Assembly (NCBI GenBank): GCA_020025775.1
Contig: JAHHRN010000006.1
Span: 55,475 to 119,474, forward strand
DNA length: 64,000 nucleotides
Direction: 5' to 3'
Source: Acutalibacter sp.
GTDB taxonomy: Bacteria; Bacillota; Clostridia; Oscillospirales; Acutalibacteraceae
A program made the translations under genes and the position numbers. The notes under the pieces are model-generated. The model was not told where the DNA came from. It searched no databases and saw only the letters and a list, made by a program, of their open reading frames with translations. Position 1 is the first letter of the stretch; every line of letters begins with the position of its first letter. Positions 1-60,468 of the stretch are shown here, piece by piece.

Positions 1-457
1 CTAAATGCACGGTCTGTTTTTCGCCGCCGGAGAGCGTGGAAACCTCTCGTCTGTAAAGAGATTCCGTACCGAAAAAGCTCACGGTCTGCGCCACACGCAG
101 AGCGATTTCTTCATCGGGATAGGAAAGATTTTGCAATAAAAAGGCAAGCTCATTTTTCACATATTCGGCGACATTTTGCGTATCGGGATTTTGCGCGGTA
201 TAGCCGATTTCCGAGGCCGAACGCGCATCGGGCAGAGCTTCTATGGGTGCATTTTTATAAAAAATCTCTCCTTCTTTTGTGCCGCTGGGGAACAATTCTT
301 TTTTGAGGGAACGAAGGAGCGTGGTTTTACCACTGCCGGAAGCACCGGCAAGTAAAATGAAATCCTCTTGCTCTATGGAAAAGCTAAGATTTTTAAGTGC
401 CTTTCTATCCGAGCCGGCGTAGGCAAAGCTTAATTTTTCTGCTCTATAGATTTCCAT
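1..457 (-). CDS. ABC transporter ATP-binding protein, ECF-type (N-terminal part; gene runs off the window start)
   Basis: Not in the ORF track (no stop in window). Reverse translation from ATG 457-455 gives MEIYRAEKLSFAYAGSDRKALKNLSFSIEQEDFILLAGASGSGKTTLLRSLK (Walker A) and ...LYRREVSTLSGGEKQTVHL (ABC signature) at the window edge. GGAGG lies 7 nt upstream. The start overlaps the end of the T-component gene. Confidence 0.85.
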   Translation of the reverse strand, partial: MEIYRAEKLSFAYAGSDRKALKNLSFSIEQEDFILLAGASGSGKTTLLRSLKKELFPSGTKEGEIFYKNAPIEALPDARSASEIGYTAQNPDTQNVAEYVKNELAFLLQNLSYPDEEIALRVAQTVSFFGTESLYRREVSTLSGGEKQTVHL

Positions 458-1299
458 TTGAGTTCCTCCCCTCCTTTAAAAATCAGCGGTAAGCTGTATA
501 AAATCATTAACAGGCTGTATGGTAAAAATGCGTTTTGAAAATAGGCATCGAGCTGAAATATCGGATAAATACTGCGCTTTAAGGGTGCAAAAACAAAGGG
601 CGCAAGAAGCATCATCAAAGAAAAGACGGAAAGCAAAGTATTCCAAAAAGAAAAATTTCGTTTGCTTGTTTTTCGCTTTTTCTTTAACAGTGCGCCTCGG
701 GCTTTCATGGAAACCGCGGTTTCAAAGGAATCCTCTAACACCCAGGAAAGCAGTGTGGCAAGATGCAAAACAAGATTGGTTAATTTTTTGCGCTTATCCT
801 CGGTCTCTTTGGCCTGCGCTTTGATTTCGGCATATTTTGCGAGTGTTTTCGGCACGAGTGCCATAGAAAGTGAAAACAAAAGGGCAAAATTCTTAGAAAT
901 GCCGCCAAAGAACAGGAAAATGCGGTCGGCATCTAAAAACAGGCAGAAAAAAGAGAACCAAAACGTAACGGCACAAAAGGAAAGTGCCGAAAAAAAGGCA
1001 AAAAGGAAGCTTTCTAAAAGCACAGGATCATCGCCGATATAGAAAAGCACGGTTGCACCGTTGCGGTTAAACAGGACGTTAAACAGCAAAATACAAACGG
1101 CAATCGGCAGGCAAAAACGACAAAGGGCACGCCACTCCTTCGCCTTGCCGTAGCAAAGGAAAGAGAGCGTACCCAAAACACACGCTAAAACGGAAACAAA
1201 GGGGTGCACGCAAAACGCCGTTACACTGGAAACGGCGAGCATAAGGCACAAAAGCGTGCCTGTATGGAGTTTGTAAAAAAAGGTGCGGTTTGCGTTCAC
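430..1299 (-). CDS. ECF transporter transmembrane (T) component, CbiQ/EcfT family
   Basis: 289-aa polytopic membrane protein with a C-terminal coupling-helix motif (AVSMKARG). GTG start overlaps the upstream stop (GTGA). Followed by the ABC ATPase. Confidence 0.7.
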   Translation of the reverse strand: MNANRTFFYKLHTGTLLCLMLAVSSVTAFCVHPFVSVLACVLGTLSFLCYGKAKEWRALCRFCLPIAVCILLFNVLFNRNGATVLFYIGDDPVLLESFLFAFFSALSFCAVTFWFSFFCLFLDADRIFLFFGGISKNFALLFSLSMALVPKTLAKYAEIKAQAKETEDKRKKLTNLVLHLATLLSWVLEDSFETAVSMKARGALLKKKRKTSKRNFSFWNTLLSVFSLMMLLAPFVFAPLKRSIYPIFQLDAYFQNAFLPYSLLMILYSLPLIFKGGEELKWKSIEQKN

Positions 1300-2045
1300 G
1301 AAGCAATGTCTCCCATCTTACAGGTATATAAAAATTCAATTTTGTCGCCGTCTTTTAAAGGATAATCCGCCGAAGAAATATTCGGGAATTTTCCATTCAC
1401 GCGATACATCCAGCCGCTGGATCTGCCGCAATCGAACTCCGAAAGTCCTGCTATACTTCGAATATAGCCGTCGGATTCGTTAATTGCCACACGGTTCTTT
1501 TTGAGGGCTTTTTTTAAAGCTTTTAAAGCACTTTCGCCCTCTTTTACCGTCACTTCACCGGAAAGAATCGCGCCGTTTTCGGGAAGTCTGCCCTTTAATT
1601 CGGGCTTCTTTTCGAGGATGCCCCACTCGATTGCCGTATGACAATCGACCGAAACCGAAACCGTAATTTCCTTTTTCGGATCCGGCTTTACCTCAGTCGG
1701 CGGAACGGGGGTTAAAATAATTTCATCGTTCGCCTCGGGGCTTTCGGGGGTATTCGGCGTATCGGCATTGACCTGCGGCGGTTTTTGTCCACTCGGCGTA
1801 TGCGGTTTCGGCGCATTCGGCTGTGCCGCCGGAGCATTGGATGTCCCAGACGACACAGCGTTATTTTCGCCGGATTGTGCTTCGGTATCTCCCGATTGTG
1901 CTTCGGGAAGCGTTGTTTCCTCCTGCAAGGAAGCCTCTACAGCTTCTGTAGGCGCCGTTGTAGATTCCTCGGTCTGCCCTGTTTTTTGGCACGCACAAAA
2001 GAGAAATACGAAGCAAAGACATAGGGAAAGAAGTTTTTTAGTCAT
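1296..2045 (-). CDS. Secreted or lipid-anchored DUF4430 (transcobalamin-like beta-domain) protein
   Basis: Signal peptide ending LFCACQ, then a long low-complexity P/T/E/A linker. The C-terminal ~110 aa (ITVSVSVDCH...GWMYRVNGKFPNISSADYPLKDGDKIEFLYT) matches the DUF4430 pattern as I remember it. Start overlaps the upstream stop (ATGACTAA). Confidence 0.6.
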   Translation of the reverse strand: MTKKLLSLCLCFVFLFCACQKTGQTEESTTAPTEAVEASLQEETTLPEAQSGDTEAQSGENNAVSSGTSNAPAAQPNAPKPHTPSGQKPPQVNADTPNTPESPEANDEIILTPVPPTEVKPDPKKEITVSVSVDCHTAIEWGILEKKPELKGRLPENGAILSGEVTVKEGESALKALKKALKKNRVAINESDGYIRSIAGLSEFDCGRSSGWMYRVNGKFPNISSADYPLKDGDKIEFLYTCKMGDIAS

Positions 2046-3210
2046 GCTTTTTCTTCATTACAAGAGCAGCTGCGCCGAAGAGAGCCGCGGTCATGAGAAC
2101 CGGTGCTGCACTCTTACCGAAGCCGGTTTTGGGAATTTCGGGCACTTCGGTGGAAGTGGTCGGATTTTCTGCCGGTGCTTCGGTTTGGGATTGTGCTTCA
2201 GGTTGTGTTTCACTCGGAGTTTCGCTGGGGGTTTCTGTGGGCTGCTCGGGTTCCATAGCCTTATTGCCGTCATAGAAAGCGGTTTCACCCTTTAAGAAGC
2301 GGTCATAAGCTACAAAGCCGCGTAAGGTCTGTTCGGTGGTCATAGCATTGGCGCTACCGTAGGCACCTGCACCGCTCTCTAACATATAGGATTTTAAAGC
2401 ATCAATCGGGGTTTTGCCGTTGTTGGAATATTCTTCGCATGTCGGGTCGATACCGAGGGTGCAAAGCGCAATGACAACCTGTGCGGTACATTCCGGGCTA
2501 ACGCCCCACTGCGGATGACCATAACCGCCGTTGTCTGCCTTTACAGATTTAATGTAGCTAAGTGCATTGTCGATAGCGGTCTGCACCTGCGGATTTTCTG
2601 CTCTGTAGGGTGCAAGCGCGCAAATGACCATAGCAGTTGTGTCGGTATCTACGCTGTTTGCCGGGTTGGTATCCCAGTTAAATGCACCGCCGAATTCTTC
2701 GCCCATGGGCTTTTGTGCCGCTAAAATGGTGTCGATGATTTCCTGTCTTTTGGCATCCGGGAAGGAAATTTCCTTATTATAATCCATAGCCAAAAGTGGG
2801 AAAATAAGGCTGGACATATAAGTTTGGTCTTTGTAGGAAACTTCGCTCAAAGCCTTAACTAAATCCACGCCGCCGATGTTCTGAACATCCATGCCGGCTG
2901 CGGCTGCACCTAAATAAACTCTAGCCATATCACTGGGATAAAGGGTAGCATTGGGAAGTGCAGCTTCGAGATAAGGTGCATATTCCTTCGGTACTTCTAC
3001 GCCTGCGCGTGCAAAGTCCAAAGCAATCCAGTCTGCTGCACCGTAAACCTTGGAAGTGTCTTCATAATTGATTTTGGAATTGGCGGGGACGCTGAGCCAG
3101 CCTACCAAATTGTCGATTTCTGCCTGCACGGAATTGCCTGCCGCAAAGGACGGGAGTGCCATGGTGCAAAGCATTAAAACGGCTAAAAGAACGGATACTG
3201 TTTTTTTCAT
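2038..3210 (-). CDS. Cell-wall-anchored alpha/alpha-toroid (prenyltransferase/terpene-cyclase-fold) protein
   Basis: Signal peptide MKKTVSVLLAVLMLCTMALPSFAAG. Repeated toroid-type motifs (DTDTTAMVICALAP, DNGGYGHPQWG, SPECTAQVVIALCTLG). P/T/E/Q linker, then IPKTG (nt 2122-2133) plus a hydrophobic stretch and a KKKHD tail, i.e. a sortase sorting signal. Confidence 0.6.
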   Translation of the reverse strand: MKKTVSVLLAVLMLCTMALPSFAAGNSVQAEIDNLVGWLSVPANSKINYEDTSKVYGAADWIALDFARAGVEVPKEYAPYLEAALPNATLYPSDMARVYLGAAAAGMDVQNIGGVDLVKALSEVSYKDQTYMSSLIFPLLAMDYNKEISFPDAKRQEIIDTILAAQKPMGEEFGGAFNWDTNPANSVDTDTTAMVICALAPYRAENPQVQTAIDNALSYIKSVKADNGGYGHPQWGVSPECTAQVVIALCTLGIDPTCEEYSNNGKTPIDALKSYMLESGAGAYGSANAMTTEQTLRGFVAYDRFLKGETAFYDGNKAMEPEQPTETPSETPSETQPEAQSQTEAPAENPTTSTEVPEIPKTGFGKSAAPVLMTAALFGAAALVMKKKHD

Positions 3211-3280
3211 GATTTTATTCCTTTCTACATTACATTGGTTTTATAAAAGCCGGATGTTTGTTTTTAGTTTCCTCCTTTCC

Positions 3281-3320
3281 GGCAAAAAAAGCGAGGTCTC
3301 TAAAAATAGAGAGACCTCGC
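3281..3320 (-). terminator. Intrinsic terminator forming the riboswitch expression platform
   Basis: Minus strand reads GCGAGGTCTC-TCTATTTTTA-GAGACCTCGC followed by TTTTTTT. It lies between the B12 aptamer and the RBS/ATG at 3210. Confidence 0.8.
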
Positions 3321-3394
3321 CCGATGCAATCACAAGAAAGTATTTTAAAAATACCGCTTTGTCTGCATACTTCTCTCCCACCGAAAGAATTTTT

Positions 3395-3565
3395 GCACAA
3401 AGCATGAGGCAGGTCTCCTGGCTTCGTACCGATAGCCATTTCTTCCGTCTTCCCGCCGCAAAGGCAGTGACATCTTGGAAGAAACGCGATACTTACAGTA
3501 GCGGGGGCTGTCACGGATTTCCACCGTGTTCCCTTTTCACTTTGGCTTACCCAAAGCACCTCGTG
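3395..3565 (-). promoter_or_regulatory. Cobalamin (B12) riboswitch aptamer
   Basis: Minus strand contains the conserved core AAGGGAACACGGTGGAAATCCGTGACAGCCCCCGCTACTGTAA (3492-3534) and the B12 box GCCAGGAGACCTGCC (3408-3422). Both match the Cobalamin riboswitch consensus. Confidence 0.9.
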
Positions 3566-3579
3566 CCGTATATTTTAAC

Positions 3580-6399
3580 TTAGAAACGGCGTGTAAAATC
3601 GGAAACCAAAGGTGCATTTACATTCACCTTATAGGGGTCTCCGGCTCTCACCGTGTTCTCGTCTATTATAGCATTTTCCTTGGAATTTGCAAGATTCTTG
3701 TATTCTTTTTTGAGATTTTCCAAAAGCGCCTTTGCAGAAAGCTCCTGCTCTAAAAGTGCAGAAAGTGCCGAAAGCTTGGTCGGAAGCTTCGAGGTAACGA
3801 CCGCCTGCATGGTGGAAACGGTATCCGCCGCGTGCAGATAGGTGCCTTCTTCTGCCGTAAAGGGTGCTGTGAAAATCTGCTGATTTGCGCCCTCCACCTG
3901 AACGGGTGCAATCGCCGCTACAAAGTCAGCAGAAACATTTTCGGGCAGTTCGGCATCAAAAAGAAGCAAGGCTTTCGCTTCCTTTAATTCGCTGACCGGT
4001 GCAAGCTCTAACAGCTTTGCACTCTCGTAGCCTGCGGCAGTTTCCTGCATAGCGGCGTACACCTTTTTAAAGTTCTGCTTTAAGAAATACAGTTCCTCTA
4101 AGGTGGCTGTCGGTCCTGCTACAACGACCGGCTCTTCGCCGAGTGTCGCGCGAAGCTTTGCATAATCCTCTGTGGATGCGACCTTGCCGTTTTCCTGTGC
4201 CGCAAGGACAGCGAATCGACCGCCCTTACAAAGGATGCCTGTTTTACCGTAGGGTACGGCACGTGTCACAAGATTACCGACATGGCGCATTTCCTGCTTG
4301 CAGTGTGCAGAGCAGAGATTGCAAACGGTTTCCTTAGTTTCCTCTTTTGCAACCAAACGCTTCTTGGTCGGCTGCTGAATACGCAGAGCACCGGTCGGGC
4401 AAACCGCTTCGCACTGACCGCAAAGAATACAGCTGCTCTGGTCAAGCGGCAAAGCGTATTCGGGCTGAACAATCGTGTTAAAACCTCTGCCTAAAAGGCC
4501 TAAAACCGCCTTACCCATTTTCTCTTCGCAGACACGAACACAAAGACCGCAAAGAATACATTTATTCTGGTCGCGGGTGATGAGCTGTTCGTTGCTCTCG
4601 ATTTCGTAACTGTGTTTGACGCCCTTGAAGCGAGACGGCTTTACATCGTATTCGTTTGCATAAGCAATGAGCTTACATTCGTAATAATCATGACAGCCGC
4701 ATTCGAGACAGCGCATGGCTTCTTTTTCCGCCGCTTCGGGGCTAAGACCCAAAGCCACTTCCTTGAAATCGTGTCTAGCTTCGGCGAAATCACGCTTCGG
4801 CATTTCGACACGCGGTGCTTTCTCAAACTTCTCGAAGAAGCTCTTTTCTAAGGTTCTTTCGACAAAATACGGTTTCTTATAGGGCACGAGCTCGCCGTCT
4901 AAATAACGGTCGATAACCACCGCCGCTTTTTGCGCTTCGCCGATAGCGGCAACAGCAATGGATGCACCGCGGTTCGTCATATCACCGACCGCAAATACAC
5001 CCTCTAAAGAGGTACGGAAGGTTTCTTCATCTGCCGCAACGGTATTTCTCTTGGTTGCCTCTACGGCTTCAAAGCCCTCTAAATTCGGCTTTTGACCGAT
5101 GGCGATAATCGCTGTGTCGAGCGCGATAAACTCCGTCTCCCCTTCGATAGGCTCGGGACGGCGTCTGCCGCTCGCATCGGGTGCGCCGAGCTGCATTTTC
5201 TGCACGGTAACACCGGTGAGCTTGCCGTTTTCTTCTGTATATTCGAGCGGTGCAGAGAGGAATTTAAAGGTTACGCCCTCTGCCTTTGCATCTTCGATTT
5301 CTTCCTTTTCCGCAGGCATTTCCGCTTCGGTTCTGCGGTAAAGCACATAGACTTCCTTAGCACCCAAACGAATGGCTGTGCGGCAGGCATCCATAGCGGT
5401 ATTACCGCCGCCGACAACGGCTACCTTATCGCCGATTTCGGGTGCATTTTGAAGCGCTACTTCACGCAAAAAGTCGATGCCGCCCCATACGTTTTGATAG
5501 GTTTCGCCGGGCACGTGCATAAAGCTGCTCTGCCATGCACCTGCCGCCAATACTACAGCATCGTAATCCTTCTGCAATTCTGCAACGGTTACGTCTCTGC
5601 CAATTTTTACGCCGTTTTTAAGGGTGACGCCGAGTGACTCAATCTGTGCGATTTCCTTATCCAAAATCGCCTTGGGGAGTCTGTATTCGGGAATGCCGTA
5701 ACGCAGCATACCGCCCATTTTGGGCATAGCATCGAGCACGGTTACCGCATGACCCATACGGCGCAGGAAGTTTGCCACGGTCAAGCCGCCGGGGCCGCCG
5801 CCGACAACCGCCACGGTTTTACCGGTATCCGGCTCTACGGACGGTACATAGGGGTCATCGCTTGCCATATCCATATCGGAAGCAAAGCCCTTGAGTGCCG
5901 CAATCGCAATCGGTTCATCGACGAACTGACGGCGGCATTCTTTTTCGCACGGATGCGGGCAAACTCGACCGATAGAGGACGGAAGCGGAATTTTTTCTTT
6001 AATCACGCGAACGGCTTCCTTGTATTCGCCGTTGGCAACCAGGCTTACATAGCCCTGGCAGTCGGTATTCGCCGGACAAGCCTTGGTACAGGGGGCTTTG
6101 CAATCGCCGTCATGGTCGGAAAGCAAAAGCTCGAGAGCCACTTTTCTGGCTCTGTCTACGCGCTCGGTATGCGTATGCACCACCATGCCGTCGCGCACAA
6201 GGGTCGAGCAGGCTCTTAAAAGCTTCGGAGAGTCCTCGGCTTCAACCACACAAAGACCGCAGGCGCCGTAAAGCTCAACTCTGCCGTCATAGCAAAGGTT
6301 CGGAATTTTAATCCCATTGGCTGTGGCGGCGTTTAAAAGCGTTGTACCTGCCGGCACTTCCACGGGTTTTCCGTCTATAATAAGTTTCACAAGTTCCAT
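3580..6399 (-). CDS. Mosaic Fe-S flavoprotein: N-terminal 2Fe-2S ferredoxin, GltD/NfnB-like NAD(P)H:FAD module, 2x[4Fe-4S], molybdopterin-type 4Fe-4S and a truncated NuoG/FdhA-like tail
   Basis: Motifs: CYDGRVELYGACGLCVVE; two dinucleotide folds (VAVVGGGPGGLTVANFL and VAVVGGGNTAMDACRTA); CILCGLCVRVC and CILCGQCEAVCPTGAL; VCNLCSAHC. I place the start at MELVKLIIDGKP (ATG 6399-6397), which overlaps the NuoF-like stop (TAATG). The ORF-track start at 6450 is less likely. Confidence 0.75.
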   Translation of the reverse strand: MELVKLIIDGKPVEVPAGTTLLNAATANGIKIPNLCYDGRVELYGACGLCVVEAEDSPKLLRACSTLVRDGMVVHTHTERVDRARKVALELLLSDHDGDCKAPCTKACPANTDCQGYVSLVANGEYKEAVRVIKEKIPLPSSIGRVCPHPCEKECRRQFVDEPIAIAALKGFASDMDMASDDPYVPSVEPDTGKTVAVVGGGPGGLTVANFLRRMGHAVTVLDAMPKMGGMLRYGIPEYRLPKAILDKEIAQIESLGVTLKNGVKIGRDVTVAELQKDYDAVVLAAGAWQSSFMHVPGETYQNVWGGIDFLREVALQNAPEIGDKVAVVGGGNTAMDACRTAIRLGAKEVYVLYRRTEAEMPAEKEEIEDAKAEGVTFKFLSAPLEYTEENGKLTGVTVQKMQLGAPDASGRRRPEPIEGETEFIALDTAIIAIGQKPNLEGFEAVEATKRNTVAADEETFRTSLEGVFAVGDMTNRGASIAVAAIGEAQKAAVVIDRYLDGELVPYKKPYFVERTLEKSFFEKFEKAPRVEMPKRDFAEARHDFKEVALGLSPEAAEKEAMRCLECGCHDYYECKLIAYANEYDVKPSRFKGVKHSYEIESNEQLITRDQNKCILCGLCVRVCEEKMGKAVLGLLGRGFNTIVQPEYALPLDQSSCILCGQCEAVCPTGALRIQQPTKKRLVAKEETKETVCNLCSAHCKQEMRHVGNLVTRAVPYGKTGILCKGGRFAVLAAQENGKVASTEDYAKLRATLGEEPVVVAGPTATLEELYFLKQNFKKVYAAMQETAAGYESAKLLELAPVSELKEAKALLLFDAELPENVSADFVAAIAPVQVEGANQQIFTAPFTAEEGTYLHAADTVSTMQAVVTSKLPTKLSALSALLEQELSAKALLENLKKEYKNLANSKENAIIDENTVRAGDPYKVNVNAPLVSDFTRRF
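3665..3692 (-). promoter_or_regulatory. Candidate sigma-A promoter embedded in the 3' end of the upstream CDS, driving the riboswitch operon
   Basis: Minus strand reads TTGCAA (3692-3687), a 16-nt spacer, then TATAAT (3670-3665), about 90 nt upstream of the aptamer. There is no room for a promoter between stop 3580 and the aptamer. Confidence 0.45.
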
Positions 6400-8156
6400 T
6401 ATTCTACCTCCACAGCGCCGAATCTGCACGAATCCAAACATTTGCCGCAACGGATGCAGACTTCTGTATCAATCACATGGGGCTGTTTTACCGCGCCGCT
6501 AATCGCGTGTACGGGGCAGTTTCTGGCGCAAAGCGTACAGCCGCGGCACTGTTCGGCATTGATTTTATAGGTGATGAGCGCTGTGCACTCACCTGCCGGA
6601 CATTTCTTTTCGTTGACGTGTGCCTCAAATTCATTACGGAAATAACGAAGCGCTGTCAGCACGGGGTTCGGTGCAGTTTGACCGAGACCGCAAAGAGAAG
6701 CATCCTTAATCGAAGCGCAAAGCTCCTCTAAAAGCTCTACGTCGCCCGGTTCGCCCTCGCCTTCTGTAATTCTCGTGAGCACTTCGAGCATACGCTTTGT
6801 GCCCAAACGACAAGGTACGCATTTACCGCAGGATTCCTTCGCCGTAAAGTCGAGGAAGAATTTCGCCATACCAAGCATGCAGGCGGTTTCATCCATAACA
6901 ACCATACCGCCGGAACCCATAATCGCACCGGTTTTGCCGAGTTCCTTATAGTCGATAACGGTATCTAAAAGAGATTCGGGAATACAGCCGCCGGACGGGC
7001 CGCCGAGCTGTACAGCCTTAAACTTTTTATTGTTTTTAATGCCACCGCCGATGTCAAAAATGACCTCGCGCAGGGTCTTACCCATCGGCACTTCGACAAG
7101 GCCGCCACGGCGCACCTTACCCGTTAAGGCAAATACCTTCGTGCCCTTGCTGTTTTCTGTACCGATTTTTGAGAAAGCCTCGCCGCCGTTTAAGAGAATC
7201 CAAGCGACGTTGGCATAGGTTTCTACGTTATTGATGTTGGAAGGCTTTCTCCAATAGCCCTCCTGTGCCGGGAAGGGCGGCTTTAAGCGCGGCATACCGC
7301 GGCTGCCCTCTAAGGATTCAATCAGTGCGGTTTCTTCGCCGCAAACGAAAGCACCTGCGCCGGCTTTAATACGCATCTTGCAGGAGAAGCCACTGCCTAA
7401 AATATTTTCGCCTAAGAAGCCCGCCTCTTCTGCCTGTGCAATCGCATTTTCCAAACGCTTAATGGCAAGAGGATATTCCGCACGCACATAGACAATCATT
7501 TCTTTGGCACCAATGGCATAAGCGCCGATGAGCATGCCTTCAATCAGCGCATGGGGGTCACCCTCGATAATCGCTCTGTCCATGAACGCACCGGGGTCGC
7601 CTTCATCCGCATTACAAATCAAATATTTTTCTTCGCCCTTTGATTTTCTGGCTTCGTTCCATTTGAACCAAGTCGGGAAGCCTGCGCCGCCGCGTCCTGC
7701 AAGGCCGGAGACTTTGATTTCTTCAATCACGTCCTCCGGGCTCATGGAAGAAAGCGCCATGGCGAGCGCCTTATAGCCGTCAAAGGTTTTGTAATCTTCA
7801 ATATTTTCGGGGTCTAAAAGACCGCAATGCCGCAGGGCAATTCTCGTTTGCTTTTCTAAGAATCCGGCATCCTCGTCGGTGATGCTCAAAGCATCCAAAG
7901 CCGAAAGGTCATCGGATTTTACGGCATTTACAATCGTTTCAGCATCCTTTTCCTGCACCTTTACAAGGCGGCGCAAAAAGGTTTTGCCGTCATAAACATC
8001 TACAATCGGCTCTAAGAAGCACATACCGATACAGCCGGTAATCGAAAGCTTTACGTCCTTTTCTTCGGCAGTTAAAGCAGTAAGGGCGTTATACACCTTA
8101 CCTGCGCCCGCGGCAATTCCGCAGGAACCCATGCCGACTACAATTCTATCAGCCAT
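6399..8156 (-). CDS. NuoF/HydB-like NADH-binding FMN Fe-S subunit
   Basis: N-terminal thioredoxin-like 2Fe-2S region (GSCGIAAGA...ITGCIGMCFLEP). GRGGAGFPTWFKW (FMN/NADH site). ESCGKCVPCRLG (N3 cluster). C-terminal 2x[4Fe-4S] (CRGCTLCARNCP, CIRCGKCLDSC). Confidence 0.85.
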   Translation of the reverse strand: MADRIVVGMGSCGIAAGAGKVYNALTALTAEEKDVKLSITGCIGMCFLEPIVDVYDGKTFLRRLVKVQEKDAETIVNAVKSDDLSALDALSITDEDAGFLEKQTRIALRHCGLLDPENIEDYKTFDGYKALAMALSSMSPEDVIEEIKVSGLAGRGGAGFPTWFKWNEARKSKGEEKYLICNADEGDPGAFMDRAIIEGDPHALIEGMLIGAYAIGAKEMIVYVRAEYPLAIKRLENAIAQAEEAGFLGENILGSGFSCKMRIKAGAGAFVCGEETALIESLEGSRGMPRLKPPFPAQEGYWRKPSNINNVETYANVAWILLNGGEAFSKIGTENSKGTKVFALTGKVRRGGLVEVPMGKTLREVIFDIGGGIKNNKKFKAVQLGGPSGGCIPESLLDTVIDYKELGKTGAIMGSGGMVVMDETACMLGMAKFFLDFTAKESCGKCVPCRLGTKRMLEVLTRITEGEGEPGDVELLEELCASIKDASLCGLGQTAPNPVLTALRYFRNEFEAHVNEKKCPAGECTALITYKINAEQCRGCTLCARNCPVHAISGAVKQPHVIDTEVCIRCGKCLDSCRFGAVEVE

Positions 8157-9023: not shown

Positions 9024-9114
9024 GGAGATGTACCCAAGAGGCTGAAGGGTCCGCACTCGAAATGCGGTAGGTCGGGCAACCGGCGCAAGAGTTCAAATCT
9101 CTTCATCTCCGCCA
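9024..9114 (+). tRNA. tRNA-Ser (anticodon CGA), type II with long variable arm, CCA encoded
   Basis: Folded by hand. Acceptor GGAGATG/CATCTCC. Anticodon stem CCGCA/TGCGG with loop CTCGAAA. Variable arm TAGGTCGGGCAACCGGCGC. T arm AAGAG-TTCAAAT-CTCTT. Discriminator G, then CCA. Confidence 0.9.
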
Positions 9115-24936: not shown

Positions 24937-26151
24937 ATGTTAACTTCTCTCGCGCTCATCTTTTTAGTGGGGCTTTCTTTGGCGGCGATCTGCCAAAAAA
25001 TCAAGCTACCGCGCATCATCGGTATGCTCGTGACGGGCATTTTGTTAGGTCCGTTTGTTTTGGACTTTTTAGACCCGAAAATTCTTTCCATTTCGGCCGA
25101 GCTTCGGCAAATGGCGCTCATCATCATTCTCTTAAAAGCCGGTCTTTCCTTGAACCTTTCGGATTTAAAAAAGGTCGGCAGACCTGCGATTCTTTTATCG
25201 TTCGTCCCTGCCAGCTTTGAGCTTTTCGCCTATGTTATATTTGCGCCCCCGATTTTGGGTATTTCCAGAATTGAAGCCGCTTTAATGGGTGCGGTTTTGG
25301 CCGCCGTTTCCCCTGCCGTGGTTGTACCGCGCATGGTACATCTTATGGAATGCGGCTACGGCACGGAAAAAAGTATTCCGCAAATGATTTTAGCCGGTGC
25401 TTCCTGTGATGATATTTTCGTTATCGTTTTGTTTTCCACCTTTTTGGGCATGGCGCAGGGCTCTTCCGCCAGTGCGCTTGCCTTCTTAAACATCCCCGTT
25501 TCCATTGTGCTCGGTATTCTTTTGGGTGCACTCACGGGCTTTCTTTTAAGTCTTTTCTTCGAAACCGCTTATGCACACAAGCACTGCATTCGCAACAGCA
25601 CAAAGGTTGTGATTGTGCTTGGCGTTTCCTTCCTCTTAATGGCGATTGAAACGTGGCTCGAGGGCAAGGTTGCCGTTTCGGGACTGCTGGCAGTTGTGAG
25701 CATGGCGTGCGTGCTCAAAATCAAGAGCCTGGCTTTTGTTTCCAAGCGTCTTTCCGAAAAATTCGGCAAGCTTTGGATTGCGGCGGAGGTCATCCTCTTT
25801 GTGCTTGTCGGTGCGGCTGTGGATATTCGCTACACCTTCAAGGCAGGTGCCGGCGCGCTTCTGCTCATTTTCTTGGCACTCCTTGTCCGCTCGCTCGGCG
25901 TTATGGTCTGCTTAATCGGTACAAAGCTCACCGCAAAAGAACGCCTGTTCTGTGTGATTGCGTATTTACCCAAAGCAACCGTGCAGGCGGCTATCGGTTC
26001 TGTGCCCCTTTCCTTGGGACTCCCCTGCGGTCAGATTATTTTATCGGTCGCCGTGCTCGCGATTCTCGTGACCGCACCCCTCGGTGCACTCGGTATAGAT
26101 GCAACCTATAAAAAGCTTCTTGCAAAGAATCCAGAAGCTTCCGCAGAATAA
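24937..26151 (+). CDS. Cation:proton antiporter (Na+/H+ exchanger family, CPA)
   Basis: MLTSLALIFLVGLSLAAICQKIKLPRIIGMLVTGILLGPFVLDFL, typical CPA N-terminus. About 12 TM helices, 404 aa. Confidence 0.8.
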   Translation: MLTSLALIFLVGLSLAAICQKIKLPRIIGMLVTGILLGPFVLDFLDPKILSISAELRQMALIIILLKAGLSLNLSDLKKVGRPAILLSFVPASFELFAYVIFAPPILGISRIEAALMGAVLAAVSPAVVVPRMVHLMECGYGTEKSIPQMILAGASCDDIFVIVLFSTFLGMAQGSSASALAFLNIPVSIVLGILLGALTGFLLSLFFETAYAHKHCIRNSTKVVIVLGVSFLLMAIETWLEGKVAVSGLLAVVSMACVLKIKSLAFVSKRLSEKFGKLWIAAEVILFVLVGAAVDIRYTFKAGAGALLLIFLALLVRSLGVMVCLIGTKLTAKERLFCVIAYLPKATVQAAIGSVPLSLGLPCGQIILSVAVLAILVTAPLGALGIDATYKKLLAKNPEASAE

Positions 26152-60381: not shown

Positions 60382-60468
60382 TGGTGCCGGTGGCCGGGGT
60401 CGAACCGGCACGGTATCGCTACCACTGGATTTTGAGTCCAGCACGTCTGCCAATTCCATCACACCGGC
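60382..60468 (-). tRNA. tRNA-Leu (anticodon CAA), type II, CCA encoded
   Basis: Minus strand reads GCCGGTG-TG-ATGGAATTGGCAGACGT-G-CTGGA-CTCAAAA-TCCAG-(variable arm TGGTAGCGATACCGT)-GCCGG-TTCGACC-CCGGC-CACCGGC-A-CCA. Confidence 0.9.

Follow-up and report, generated by a model that had tools for sequence, protein, structure and literature searches.

Organization of the operon

We analyzed a stretch of 64,000 nucleotides of DNA from Acutalibacter sp., referred to here as the window, one end of which carries a cobalamin riboswitch and genes for two surface proteins and for components of an ECF transporter. All elements of this locus are located on the minus strand. The riboswitch aptamer (positions 3391..3578) matched Rfam model RF00174 over its full length (model positions 1–189) with a score of 129.5 bits (E = 2.9e-32), the gathering score being 31.5, and both the B12 box, GCCAGGAGACCTGCC, and a second string quoted in a preliminary description of this DNA, GGTGGAAATCCGTGACAGCCCCCGC, were present in the sequence. 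In the interval separating the aptamer from the first gene, which encodes a toroid protein, a terminator scan detected an intrinsic terminator (3281..3322) that consists of a 13-bp G+C-rich stem (hairpin 3322..3289) followed by a T run, confirming the terminator and U-tract that had been claimed. This hairpin dominated the fold of positions 3270–3400 (z = –3.55), and the presence of a terminator in the expression platform of the riboswitch implies a transcriptional OFF switch. A promoter-like site (3665..3692), identified only as a match to the consensus (TTGCAA, 16-nt spacer, TG-TATAAT; 10/12 in the scan), falls within the 3' end of the gene located upstream.

The riboswitch is followed by genes for a secreted alpha/alpha-toroid protein of 390 amino acids (2038..3210), a DUF4430 lipoprotein of 249 amino acids (1296..2045), a T component of 289 amino acids with a GTG start codon (430..1299), and an ATPase, of which the NH2-terminal 152 amino acids are encoded in the window (1..457) before the gene exits at position 1. 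As previously stated, these four coupled genes overlap by 8 nt (ATGACTAA; toroid and DUF4430 genes), 4 nt (GTGA; DUF4430 and T-component genes), and 28 nt (T-component and ATPase genes). The tight translational coupling of the toroid and DUF4430 genes suggests that the two proteins are produced in equimolar amounts.

The T component, which contains the conserved SMKARG motif, had been assigned to the EcfT/CbiQ type. As a single sequence it yielded no match in Pfam or NCBIfam, so that the assignment depends on its family: a profile of 18 members matched EcfT of 5D3M/6FNP at 3.3e-13 and 4HZU and 4HUQ at 3e-11, and 5 of the 18 members matched PF02361 (CbiQ). We therefore regard it as a divergent EcfT/CbiQ-type protein. 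The ATPase matched TIGR04520 (ECF_ATPase_1) at 7.2e-28, in agreement with its description as an ABC ATPase, an assignment that relatives refine to a fused A-A' double ATPase.

The full operon was found in three relatives (L001, L002, and L003). L001 is a contig that is collinear with the locus in the window and 96.5% identical to it; its ATPase comprises 546 amino acids with two ABC_tran domains, and directly after the ATPase gene lies a gene for an S component of 183 amino acids that aligns over its full length with CbrT of Lactobacillus delbrueckii (6FNP_A, E = 1.1e-11). The suggestion that an S component might lie beyond position 1 was thus borne out in this close relative. The same operon, preceded by the same riboswitch, was present even where the toroid protein of the relative shares only 81% or 41% identity with that studied here. 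Judged from these sequences, the predicted order of the operon is riboswitch, toroid, DUF4430, EcfT, fused EcfA-A', and CbrT, with the last 1.5 genes located beyond position 1.

Structure and sequence affinity of the surface proteins

The DUF4430 protein consists of a signal peptide with a lipobox-like FCAC motif, a linker of ~100 amino acids rich in T, E, P, A, and Q, and a COOH-terminal domain of ~125 amino acids. It matched PF14478 with an E-value of 1.9e-19, which substantiates the earlier identification of a lipoprotein-like DUF4430 (transcobalamin-beta-like, or SLBB) protein, and its homologs possess a canonical L-T-A-C lipobox at the position equivalent to FCAC. A profile of the DUF4430 clade showed no sequence-level match to the chains of transcobalamin, intrinsic factor, or haptocorrin in PDB.

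The toroid protein comprises a signal peptide, the toroid itself (approximately residues 25–320), a P/T/E linker, and a sorting signal composed of IPKTG, a hydrophobic stretch, and KKKHD. It had been described as sortase-anchored, and a signal of the sorting type was indeed present; its motif is not the canonical LPXTG, however, and TIGR01167 scored 13.3 bits, below its cutoff of 15.9. The motif is retained as IPKTG or IPQTG in the homologs P0002–P0004, P0072, and P0084. The AlphaFold2 model showed an alpha/alpha toroid (pLDDT of 93.1, pTM of 0.92), for which the top Foldseek matches were terpene cyclases and GH88/GH105 enzymes. Transcobalamin was among the significant fold matches, but the lone domain did not single it out, given that TM scores of 0.55–0.61 were obtained for many toroid families.

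At the sequence level, a profile of the toroid family matched squalene-hopene cyclase at 6e-19, and the single sequence gave only subthreshold scores for SQHop_cyclase_C and Prenyltrans in Pfam. The prenyltransferase fold that had been proposed is therefore supported by the model and the family profile but not by single-sequence Pfam scores. Membership in PF01122 (Cobalamin_bind), which had been put forward for examination, found no sequence support in the Pfam search, and a relation to the PDB chains of transcobalamin, intrinsic factor, and haptocorrin was undetectable by sequence. The sequence kinship of the toroid is with squalene-hopene cyclase and prenyltransferases, not with the alpha domain of transcobalamin.

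This affinity, the Foldseek results, and a conserved D-x-D-T-T-A-M motif that resembles DXDDTA of class II cyclases could indicate that the toroid is an enzyme acting in the envelope, of either the terpene-cyclase/prenyltransferase or the glycoside-hydrolase type, and that its adjacency to a transporter is fortuitous. We consider such a role highly improbable. The protein is a single secreted toroid of ~300 amino acids with no counterpart of the second barrel found in class II cyclases, and an extracellular toroid would have no access to isoprenoid diphosphates. Every single-sequence Pfam score was under the family threshold, and the position of the toroid behind B12 riboswitches, beside or fused with DUF4430, is conserved in dozens of species.

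Fusion proteins and related loci

The toroid and DUF4430 domains were encoded in one open reading frame at 54 of 80 related loci, and a separate DUF4430 gene was present within 3 kb at 47 of the 80; their pairing is not due to chance. Giant surface proteins that contain both domains exist, and the natural single-chain fusion P0197 consists of a signal peptide, a toroid, two transmembrane helices, and DUF4430. The 15 best PDB matches to the AlphaFold model of this fusion were all transcobalamin, intrinsic factor, or haptocorrin (E = 8e-9 to 6e-7), with E-values ~1000-fold better than that of the next fold class and alignments that spanned both domains. Its DUF4430-equivalent domain matched the beta domain of human transcobalamin (5no0) with a TM score of 0.71. 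The interdomain arrangement in the model is uncertain (pTM of 0.58, RMSD of ~10 Å to transcobalamin). A fusion-form gene is located in a cobamide-salvage operon together with CobT, CobU, CobS, CobC, and ECF genes.

How often the pair sits behind a B12 riboswitch had been posed as a question in the preliminary description. Among 58 related loci from species-representative genomes (54 assemblies), a cobalamin-clan riboswitch in the sense orientation was located upstream at 34 loci, corresponding to 33 assemblies, and was not seen at the other 24. For 32 of the 34, the distance to the first toroid or DUF4430 gene was ≤600 nt.

The two surface proteins of a corrinoid importer might nevertheless act separately, with no transcobalamin-like sandwich being formed. 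For example, the DUF4430 lipoprotein alone might bind the corrinoid, in the manner of a classical substrate-binding lipoprotein, and the toroid would then recognize something else, such as another cobamide or a precursor, a B12-carrier protein of host or microbial origin, or part of the wall. Such an arrangement would fit riboswitch-controlled loci where no DUF4430 gene is visible beside the toroid gene (L072) or where DUF4430 genes lack a toroid partner (L059 and L080), and many operons encode a giant toroid-DUF4430 protein plus an additional small DUF4430 lipoprotein, so that the stoichiometry is not simply 1:1. In the window, moreover, the two proteins are anchored in different layers, and the toroid resembles terpene cyclases rather than transcobalamin in sequence. 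We nonetheless judge separate action to be unlikely, given the repeated occurrence of both domains in one chain, the match of the fused form, in domain order and in the folds of both domains, to transcobalamin, intrinsic factor, and haptocorrin, and the equimolar production suggested by the 8-nt overlap.

Comparison with previously described systems

The interpretation of such proteins as a split catcher is not new. Burroughs, Balaji, Iyer & Aravind (2007, Biol Direct 2:4; PMC1796856) predicted that transcobalamin-like SLBB proteins scavenge B12 or its precursors and that toroid and beta-grasp domains cooperate in B12 binding. Like the proteins described here, theirs are secreted or anchored in Gram-positive bacteria, contain the COOH-terminal beta-grasp domain of transcobalamin, with an alpha/alpha toroid as fusion partner or associated protein, and their genes accompany those for an ATPase resembling CbiO and a membrane protein resembling CbiQ. 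Riboswitches, CbrT, and the ECF concept are absent from that study, and its examples were mostly fusions, whereas the two domains in the window reside on separate, differently anchored polypeptides and the link to B12 is additionally backed by the riboswitch survey.

A genetic study of the same five-gene module in L. sakei (Verplaetse et al. 2019; bioRxiv 10.1101/864751) assigned it to heme uptake. On the basis of the description in that paper rather than of a sequence comparison, it comprises an S component, a fused A-A' ATPase, a T component, the exported beta-like Lsa1839, and the exported alpha-like Lsa1840. In view of these two studies, the earlier impression that the pair is uncharacterized is only partly right, although we found no published corrinoid-binding test of such bacterial toroid/DUF4430 proteins.

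The L. sakei results raise the alternative that the module imports heme, or tetrapyrroles generally, with the surface proteins scavenging heme. Deletion of lsa1836–1840 reduced 57Fe-hemin accumulation 5- to 8-fold at 5–40 µM, complementation or overexpression increased it, and docking of heme into a homology model of the two proteins was feasible (10.1101/864751). That assignment is based on mutant phenotypes at micromolar hemin only, in a study without a binding measurement or B12 test that reported no riboswitch and described the S component as lacking cobalamin-binding residues (10.1101/864751). The operon in the window, in contrast, is preceded by a high-scoring cobalamin riboswitch, as are 34 of the 58 related loci, its S component in relatives is homologous over its full length to CbrT, a proven S component for B12, and genes for the cobamide nucleotide loop surround the fusion form. 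These features point to corrinoids and render a heme importer improbable.

ECF-CbrT of L. delbrueckii is a proven ATP-dependent importer of cobalamin and cobinamide (Santos et al. 2018, eLife 7:e35828; PMC5997447; PDB 6FNP), and it is the EcfT of this complex that the T-component family matches. Its ECF module is shared (group II), A and A' are separate subunits, and no extracellular helper has been described, whereas the module studied here is dedicated, with fused ATPases, a T component so divergent that Pfam CbiQ does not detect it, and two added surface proteins. Given that ECF-CbrT functions without accessory proteins in L. delbrueckii (PMC5997447), the pair is not essential to this type of transporter.

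Transcobalamin, intrinsic factor, and haptocorrin (for example, PDB 2BB5, 2PMV, and 4KKI) likewise combine the two folds in this order, an alpha6/alpha6 toroid preceding a beta-grasp domain that carries PF14478. These eukaryotic carriers are single soluble chains that deliver to an endocytic receptor, whereas the bacterial proteins are two anchored chains that would deliver to an ECF transporter. Functional analogs in gut bacteria are BtuG and BtuH of Bacteroides, riboswitch-controlled surface lipoproteins that bind B12 and feed a transporter; they differ in having unrelated folds (beta-propeller and others), in residing at the outer membrane, and in that the TonB-dependent BtuB receives the substrate.

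Proposed function

The riboswitch with its terminator, the CbrT-like S component, the fusions, the cobamide-salvage context, and the riboswitch survey together lead us to conclude that the operon probably encodes a dedicated (group I), B12-repressed corrinoid importer of the ECF-CbrT type with a two-piece transcobalamin-like surface catcher. Weighing against such a catcher are the dissimilarity of the toroid sequence to PF01122, the uncertain arrangement of the fusion, and the loci at which the riboswitch was not seen. According to this model, the terminating riboswitch would turn the operon off when B12 is present, and the operon would be transcribed when B12 is scarce. The toroid protein, as the counterpart of the transcobalamin alpha domain, would be tethered to the wall through its sortase-type signal, and the DUF4430 beta-grasp lipoprotein, as that of the beta domain, would be tethered to the membrane through its long flexible linker. 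Outside the cell, the two proteins may then close around a corrinoid, whether cobalamin, cobinamide, or another cobamide. They would thereby concentrate it locally at the membrane and may hand it to the high-affinity S component CbrT, which would translocate it with the EcfT/A-A' module and ATP.

Results

Operon structure and riboswitch

The visible part of the operon comprises four genes on the minus strand, which encode a toroid protein of 390 amino acids (3210..2038), a DUF4430 protein of 249 amino acids (2045..1296), a T component of 289 amino acids with a GTG start (1299..430), and an ECF ATPase (457..<1), 152 amino acids of which are visible, the gene continuing past the window edge. The overlaps between these genes, of 8, 4, and 28 nt, were exactly as stated in the preliminary description. 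An exact-sequence look-up found none of the three complete window proteins in the databases, nor P0008, the database gene call of the window DUF4430 protein, which is identical to it across its 210 amino acids. For this reason, the remainder of the operon was read from close relatives, on three contigs (L001, L002, and L003) with toroid proteins 98, 81, and 41% identical to that of the window.

The cobalamin riboswitch claimed in the preliminary description was detected as a full-length RF00174 aptamer at 3578..3391 (−), which matched the model end to end (1–189) with 129.5 bits against a gathering score of 31.5 (E = 2.9e-32); both sequence strings quoted for it were found. RF00174 was also present at the equivalent position in all three relatives. 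The aptamer is separated from the first start codon by an intrinsic terminator, a 13-bp G+C-rich hairpin (3322..3289, −) with a T run after it, and this hairpin is the dominant element of the predicted fold of 3270–3400 (z = −3.55). Given this arrangement, the riboswitch has the appearance of an OFF switch that acts by terminating transcription. At 3692..3665 (−) there is a promoter-like site (TTGCAA, 16-nt spacer, TG-TATAAT), identified as a consensus match only.

The region upstream of the riboswitch (3580–8156, −; L002:359-5434) encodes a 956-amino acid Fer2_4/Fer4_20/Pyr_redox_2 protein and a 585-amino acid NuoF-like (Complex1_51K) protein, preceded in relatives by a NuoE-like gene. L001 and L002 preserve the synteny of these genes with the B12 operon, and the genes resemble an NADH-linked, electron-bifurcating-type oxidoreductase cluster. 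The window also contains a fluoride riboswitch (RF01734, 24820–24891, +, 44.4 bits), directly followed by a gene for a 404-amino acid polytopic membrane protein (24937–26151, +) that looks like a cation/proton antiporter, as well as genes for tRNA-Ser(CGA) (9024–9114, +) and tRNA-Leu(CAA) (60382–60468, −).

ECF transporter components

The visible 152 residues of the ATPase matched TIGR04520 (ECF_ATPase_1) with an E value of 7.2e-28; in the three relatives the protein has 546 amino acids and two fused ABC_tran domains (A-A'). As a single sequence, the T component showed no Pfam, NCBIfam, or meaningful PDB match, whereas a profile of 18 family sequences matched EcfT of 5D3M/6FNP (E = 3.3e-13) over ~235 residues, including the (S)RG motif, as well as the EcfT chains of 4HZU and 4HUQ. 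PF02361 (CbiQ) was matched by 5 of the 18 family members. The earlier EcfT/CbiQ call for gene 3 was thus borne out by the family profile, not by the single sequence, and by this homology the protein is a divergent EcfT.

No S component had been seen in the window, and it was suggested that one might lie beyond position 1. For 6.7 kb, as far as the edge of the window, L001 is collinear with the window sequence, with 96.5% DNA identity, and its ATPase gene is directly followed by a gene for an S component, as is also the case in L002, L003, and a further related locus, L006. The "missing" S component therefore probably lies just beyond position 1. The S components of the three relatives have 183–185 amino acids (PF07155/PF12822). 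Homology to CbrT was measured with the protein of the relative L001 (L001:7864-8415), which aligned with Lactobacillus delbrueckii CbrT (6FNP_A) over residues 1–177 of both proteins (E = 1.1e-11). CbrT is an experimentally proven S component for cobalamin and cobinamide, and L. delbrueckii cbrT sits in an nrdJ-cbrS-cbrT-pduO cluster (PMC5997447). Judged by these homologies, the system is probably a dedicated (group I) ECF-CbrT transporter. A cobalt transporter of the CbiMNQO type was discarded in view of the CbrT-like S component and the absence of CbiM and CbiN.

DUF4430 and toroid proteins

The DUF4430 protein consists of a signal peptide, a low-complexity linker of ~100 amino acids, and a COOH-terminal PF14478 domain, the last of which matched profile positions 1–71 of 72 with 70.3 bits against a gathering threshold of 23.8 (E = 1.9e-19), in agreement with the original assignment. 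The sequence there, MTKKLLSLCLCFVFLFCAC|QKTG, contains an atypical lipobox-like FCAC; homologues carry L-T-A-C or M-T-A-C at the aligned position. Public gene calls (P0008, as well as the homologue P0057 of 211 amino acids) begin ~39 codons later and thereby drop the signal peptide and lipobox. Conservation of the MTKK...FCAC NH2-terminus in two further homologues, P0009 and P0010, supports the start that gives 249 amino acids and the 8-nt overlap. A PDB search with the single sequence yielded nothing meaningful, and a profile of the DUF4430 clade gave only chance matches to rotavirus VP4, with no transcobalamin among the PDB matches. The case for homology to the transcobalamin beta domain therefore depends on PF14478 and structural similarity.

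The toroid protein has a signal peptide, a domain of ~300 amino acids, a P/T/E-rich linker, and a putative COOH-terminal sorting signal (IPKTG, a hydrophobic stretch, and KKKHD) that reads EIPKTG-FGKSAAPVLMTAALFGAAALVM-KKKHD. This signal scored 13.3 bits with TIGR01167 (LPXTG), under the cutoff of 15.9, and matched NF053819 at 1.4e-4; the motif is kept as IP[KQ]TG among homologues. The alpha/alpha-toroid fold proposed for the domain was recovered in a confident AlphaFold2 model of residues 25–325 (pLDDT 93.1, pTM 0.92). The relation to prenyltransferases and squalene-hopene cyclases also held at the family level: the protein alone matched SQHop_cyclase_C and Prenyltrans of Pfam below threshold (21.2 and 20.5 bits vs 26.1 and 26.5) and gave only weak terpene-cyclase matches in a PDB search (E = 0.007–0.02), whereas a profile of 24 family members matched both squalene-hopene cyclase (E = 6.3e-19) and, less strongly, RabGGTase beta (E = 3.6e-6). 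By profile homology, the toroid belongs to the squalene-hopene cyclase/prenyltransferase superfamily, which shows a common fold and ancestry, not enzymatic function. In contrast, the protein had no Pfam match to PF01122 (Cobalamin_bind) at E ≤ 1, and the 24-sequence profile matched none of the PDB chains of transcobalamin, intrinsic factor, or haptocorrin at E ≤ 10, so that membership of the Cobalamin_bind family was not borne out and the resemblance to transcobalamin is at the level of fold only.

A Foldseek search of the PDB with the lone toroid returned terpene cyclases, GH88/GH105 proteins, prenyltransferase beta subunits, and, from rank 11 onward, transcobalamin, with TM scores of 0.55–0.61. 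The lone toroid fold does not single out transcobalamin, because many toroid families score alike, and this match was dropped as specific evidence for transcobalamin, terpene cyclases and GH88/GH105 being equally close. The most conserved motif of the toroid, D-x-D-[TSV]-T-[AS]-M (2614–2670, −; residues ~181–199, DTNPANSVDTDTTAMVICA), in which D and T are invariant family-wide, may line a ligand site. An alternative reading, which seems unlikely, is that the toroid is an enzyme; the motif is similar to DXDDTA, as found in class II terpene cyclases, without its third Asp. The toroid protein (2038–3210, −) also matched NF053823, "SCO2321 family membrane protein," at E = 9.8e-15, far under the model cutoff, which suggests that toroid membrane proteins have an actinobacterial branch, perhaps of related role.

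Fusion proteins and the fold of a putative two-domain carrier

An exhaustive HMMER search with the toroid domain yielded 4954 cluster representatives (50% identity), 2964 of them at E ≤ 1e-10. Many of these proteins (P0065–P0212) have 1000–5000 amino acids, two to four toroid copies, and several DUF4430 units, the giants combining toroids with DUF4430, SLH, dockerin, or Big_2 domains (Pfam). One protein, P0197 (551 amino acids), contains a signal peptide, a toroid, two transmembrane helices, and DUF4430, and is a literal fusion of window-type genes. In its AlphaFold2 model the domains were well predicted (pLDDT 82) and their arrangement was uncertain (pTM 0.58). The top 15 PDB matches of this model in Foldseek were all transcobalamin, intrinsic factor, or haptocorrin, spanning both domains (E = 8e-9 to 6e-7), and the next fold class began at 5e-5; the TM score against the isolated human transcobalamin beta domain (5no0) was 0.71. 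P0197 has the folds and their order as in a transcobalamin-type carrier, the relative orientation of the domains not being reproduced (RMSD ~10 Å, pTM 0.58). Independent action of the toroid and DUF4430 proteins, separate chains in the window, is a less likely alternative; cooperation is favoured, though not proved, by the recurrent fusions and by the fold match across two domains.

The operon of this fusion type (L004:497-11218, on a metagenome contig, and L005) has the order T, A-A', AP_endonuc_2, zf-like, CobT, CobU, CobS, CobU-like, CobC, HNH_repeat, DUF2284, fusion, S, and T', and is, as read from its gene content, a cobamide salvage and remodelling cluster. The fusion type also occurs in L016, L018, L025, and L063. 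The fusion protein is very abundant in metagenomes, with 825 matches; among the 120 matches listed, all were at least 91% identical.

Survey of related loci

Scanning GTDB species-representative genomes with the toroid alignment yielded 80 loci, which were annotated with HMMs built in this analysis. They belong mostly to Oscillospiraceae and other Clostridia, and also to Paenibacillus (for example, L047), Romboutsia, and Peptococcaceae; L040 is from Hydrogeniiclostridium mannosilyticum. Toroid and DUF4430 share one ORF in 54 of the 80 loci, a separate DUF4430 gene lies within 3 kb in 47, and two or more ECF components are adjacent in 37. The recurring order is a toroid-containing protein (often giant), a small DUF4430 lipoprotein, T, A-A', S, and sometimes a second T.

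Riboswitches were surveyed with an nhmmer pre-screen and Rfam confirmation, with 4 weak riboswitches missed by nhmmer being found by Rfam. In 58 loci (727 kb), Rfam identified 36 cobalamin-clan riboswitches, of which 34, from 33 of 54 assemblies, are sense-oriented upstream of the first toroid or DUF4430 gene, 32 of these within 600 nt. The placement behind a B12 riboswitch seen in the window recurs at 34 of 58 related loci, both with an adjacent ECF module (16/25) and without one in view (18/33). The 24 riboswitch-negative loci mainly encode Oscillibacter-type giant proteins; the visible upstream region contained no cobalamin riboswitch in L007, L008, L010, L011, L014, L017, L021–L024, L032, L035, and L062 (mostly Oscillibacter/Oscillospiraceae-type giants). 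The riboswitch-less giants may have another ligand or another mode of regulation. Three of these loci, L010, L014, and L023, have recurrent pemK RNA motifs downstream.

Giant toroid/DUF4430 proteins (among loci L007–L085; for example, L049:2-10405, L047:4052-11029, and L033:2-7945) may be multivalent corrinoid-binding arrays, and many of them lie directly behind B12 riboswitches even without an adjacent transporter. Some riboswitches are divergent or point away from the toroid operon: L065:1344-1532 (−) is back-to-back with L065:1611-1819 (+), and others lie at L067:1156-1409 (−) and L004:1-86 (−). Neighbouring divergent genes are therefore also B12-regulated.

ECF modules are usually described with a single T component, as found in the window-type operon. 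A second EcfT-like gene, giving the arrangement T, A-A', S, T', was present in 13 of the 80 loci (L026, L027, L037, L046, L049, L053, L054, L057, L060, L067, L077, L078, and L080) and in L004, with the SM(K/R)SRG motif kept in both copies (for example, L027:9707-10591 and L027:12913-13845; L004:497-1357 and L004:10346-11218). In seven loci, A-A' is further joined to a CbrT-like S component in one ORF of ~860–940 amino acids (L040:9800-12538, L042:5010-7818, L043:9878-12700, L059:3191-5785, L066:9934-12579, L068:10270-12954, and L081:5234-7689). The S component is usually thought to dissociate, whereas such an A-A'-S fusion would tether it permanently to its motor.

Discussion

In the gut and rumen, microbial communities compete for B12 and other cobamides as limiting cofactors, and far less is understood about how Gram-positive bacteria capture cobamides on the outer side of the membrane than about the BtuG/BtuB system of Bacteroides. 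The locus described here places B12-responsive control over ECF-CbrT parts and two extracytoplasmic folds, which co-occur or are fused elsewhere and are associated with riboswitches. Burroughs, Balaji, Iyer and Aravind defined a transcobalamin-like SLBB clade in 2007 and described bacterial fusions of SLBB with alpha/alpha toroids, Gram-positive anchors, linkage to CbiO and CbiQ genes, and surface proteins of several domains whose operons encode another SLBB paralogue (PMC1796856). The function that they predicted was scavenging of B12 or of B12 precursors, and they proposed that animals obtained transcobalamin from low-GC Gram-positives (PMC1796856). In 2019, Verplaetse et al. studied the five-gene lsa1836-1840 locus of L. 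sakei, encoding S, fused A-A', T, and exported beta-like and alpha-like proteins, as an ECF system with "transcobalamin-like" capture subunits (10.1101/864751). A riboswitch is mentioned in neither the 2007 (PMC1796856) nor the 2019 (10.1101/864751) paper. The idea, put forward in the preliminary description, that the two extracellular proteins form a corrinoid-capture pair feeding an ECF importer is supported and sound, but it is not new and has been made before. This kind of locus has been predicted and partly studied by genetics; the concept itself is not novel, and the value of the present analysis therefore lies in confirmation and in a good experimental candidate.

With regard to the ligand, deletion and complementation of lsa1836-1840 in L. 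sakei indicated heme uptake (10.1101/864751); that heme is the substrate of the module is a rival reading that seems unlikely. For the window locus, the riboswitch, the homology to CbrT, and the cobamide-salvage context speak against heme. We favour corrinoids as the native ligand, because riboswitches are present at 34 of 58 loci, the fusion lies in a cobamide-salvage operon, and the fold of the fused form matched only transcobalamin, intrinsic factor, and haptocorrin. A scarcity of B12 would allow transcription to read through into the operon. On their long flexible linkers, the toroid, tethered to the wall, and the beta-grasp protein, tethered to the membrane, would then close on a corrinoid, in the manner of the alpha and beta domains of transcobalamin, and we infer that the pair would pass it to CbrT, which would be toppled by EcfT/A-A' with the use of ATP.

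The locus is a compact, clean example of the predicted capture device, in which a toroid putatively anchored to the wall and a beta-grasp protein putatively anchored to the membrane are combined with a probable dedicated ECF-CbrT. A broader reading, which we hold tentatively and place just short of an even call, is that the pair is the smallest, two-chain version of a large, almost unstudied Gram-positive class of corrinoid-catching surface proteins (~5000 toroid clusters, with SLH-, dockerin-, or sortase-anchored giants) that act as wall-to-membrane relays or B12 sponges deciding cobamide competition in the gut, and that are the bacterial stock of animal transcobalamin-type carriers. In that case, heme uptake as assigned to the L. 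sakei system would reflect a side activity. In the literature searched, we found no biochemical test of corrinoid binding by bacterial toroid/DUF4430 proteins. The survey bears on the disagreement between the prediction of B12 in 2007 and the genetics pointing to heme in 2019, and the locus is a clean candidate both for settling this matter and for a first biochemical study of how Gram-positive bacteria capture corrinoids.
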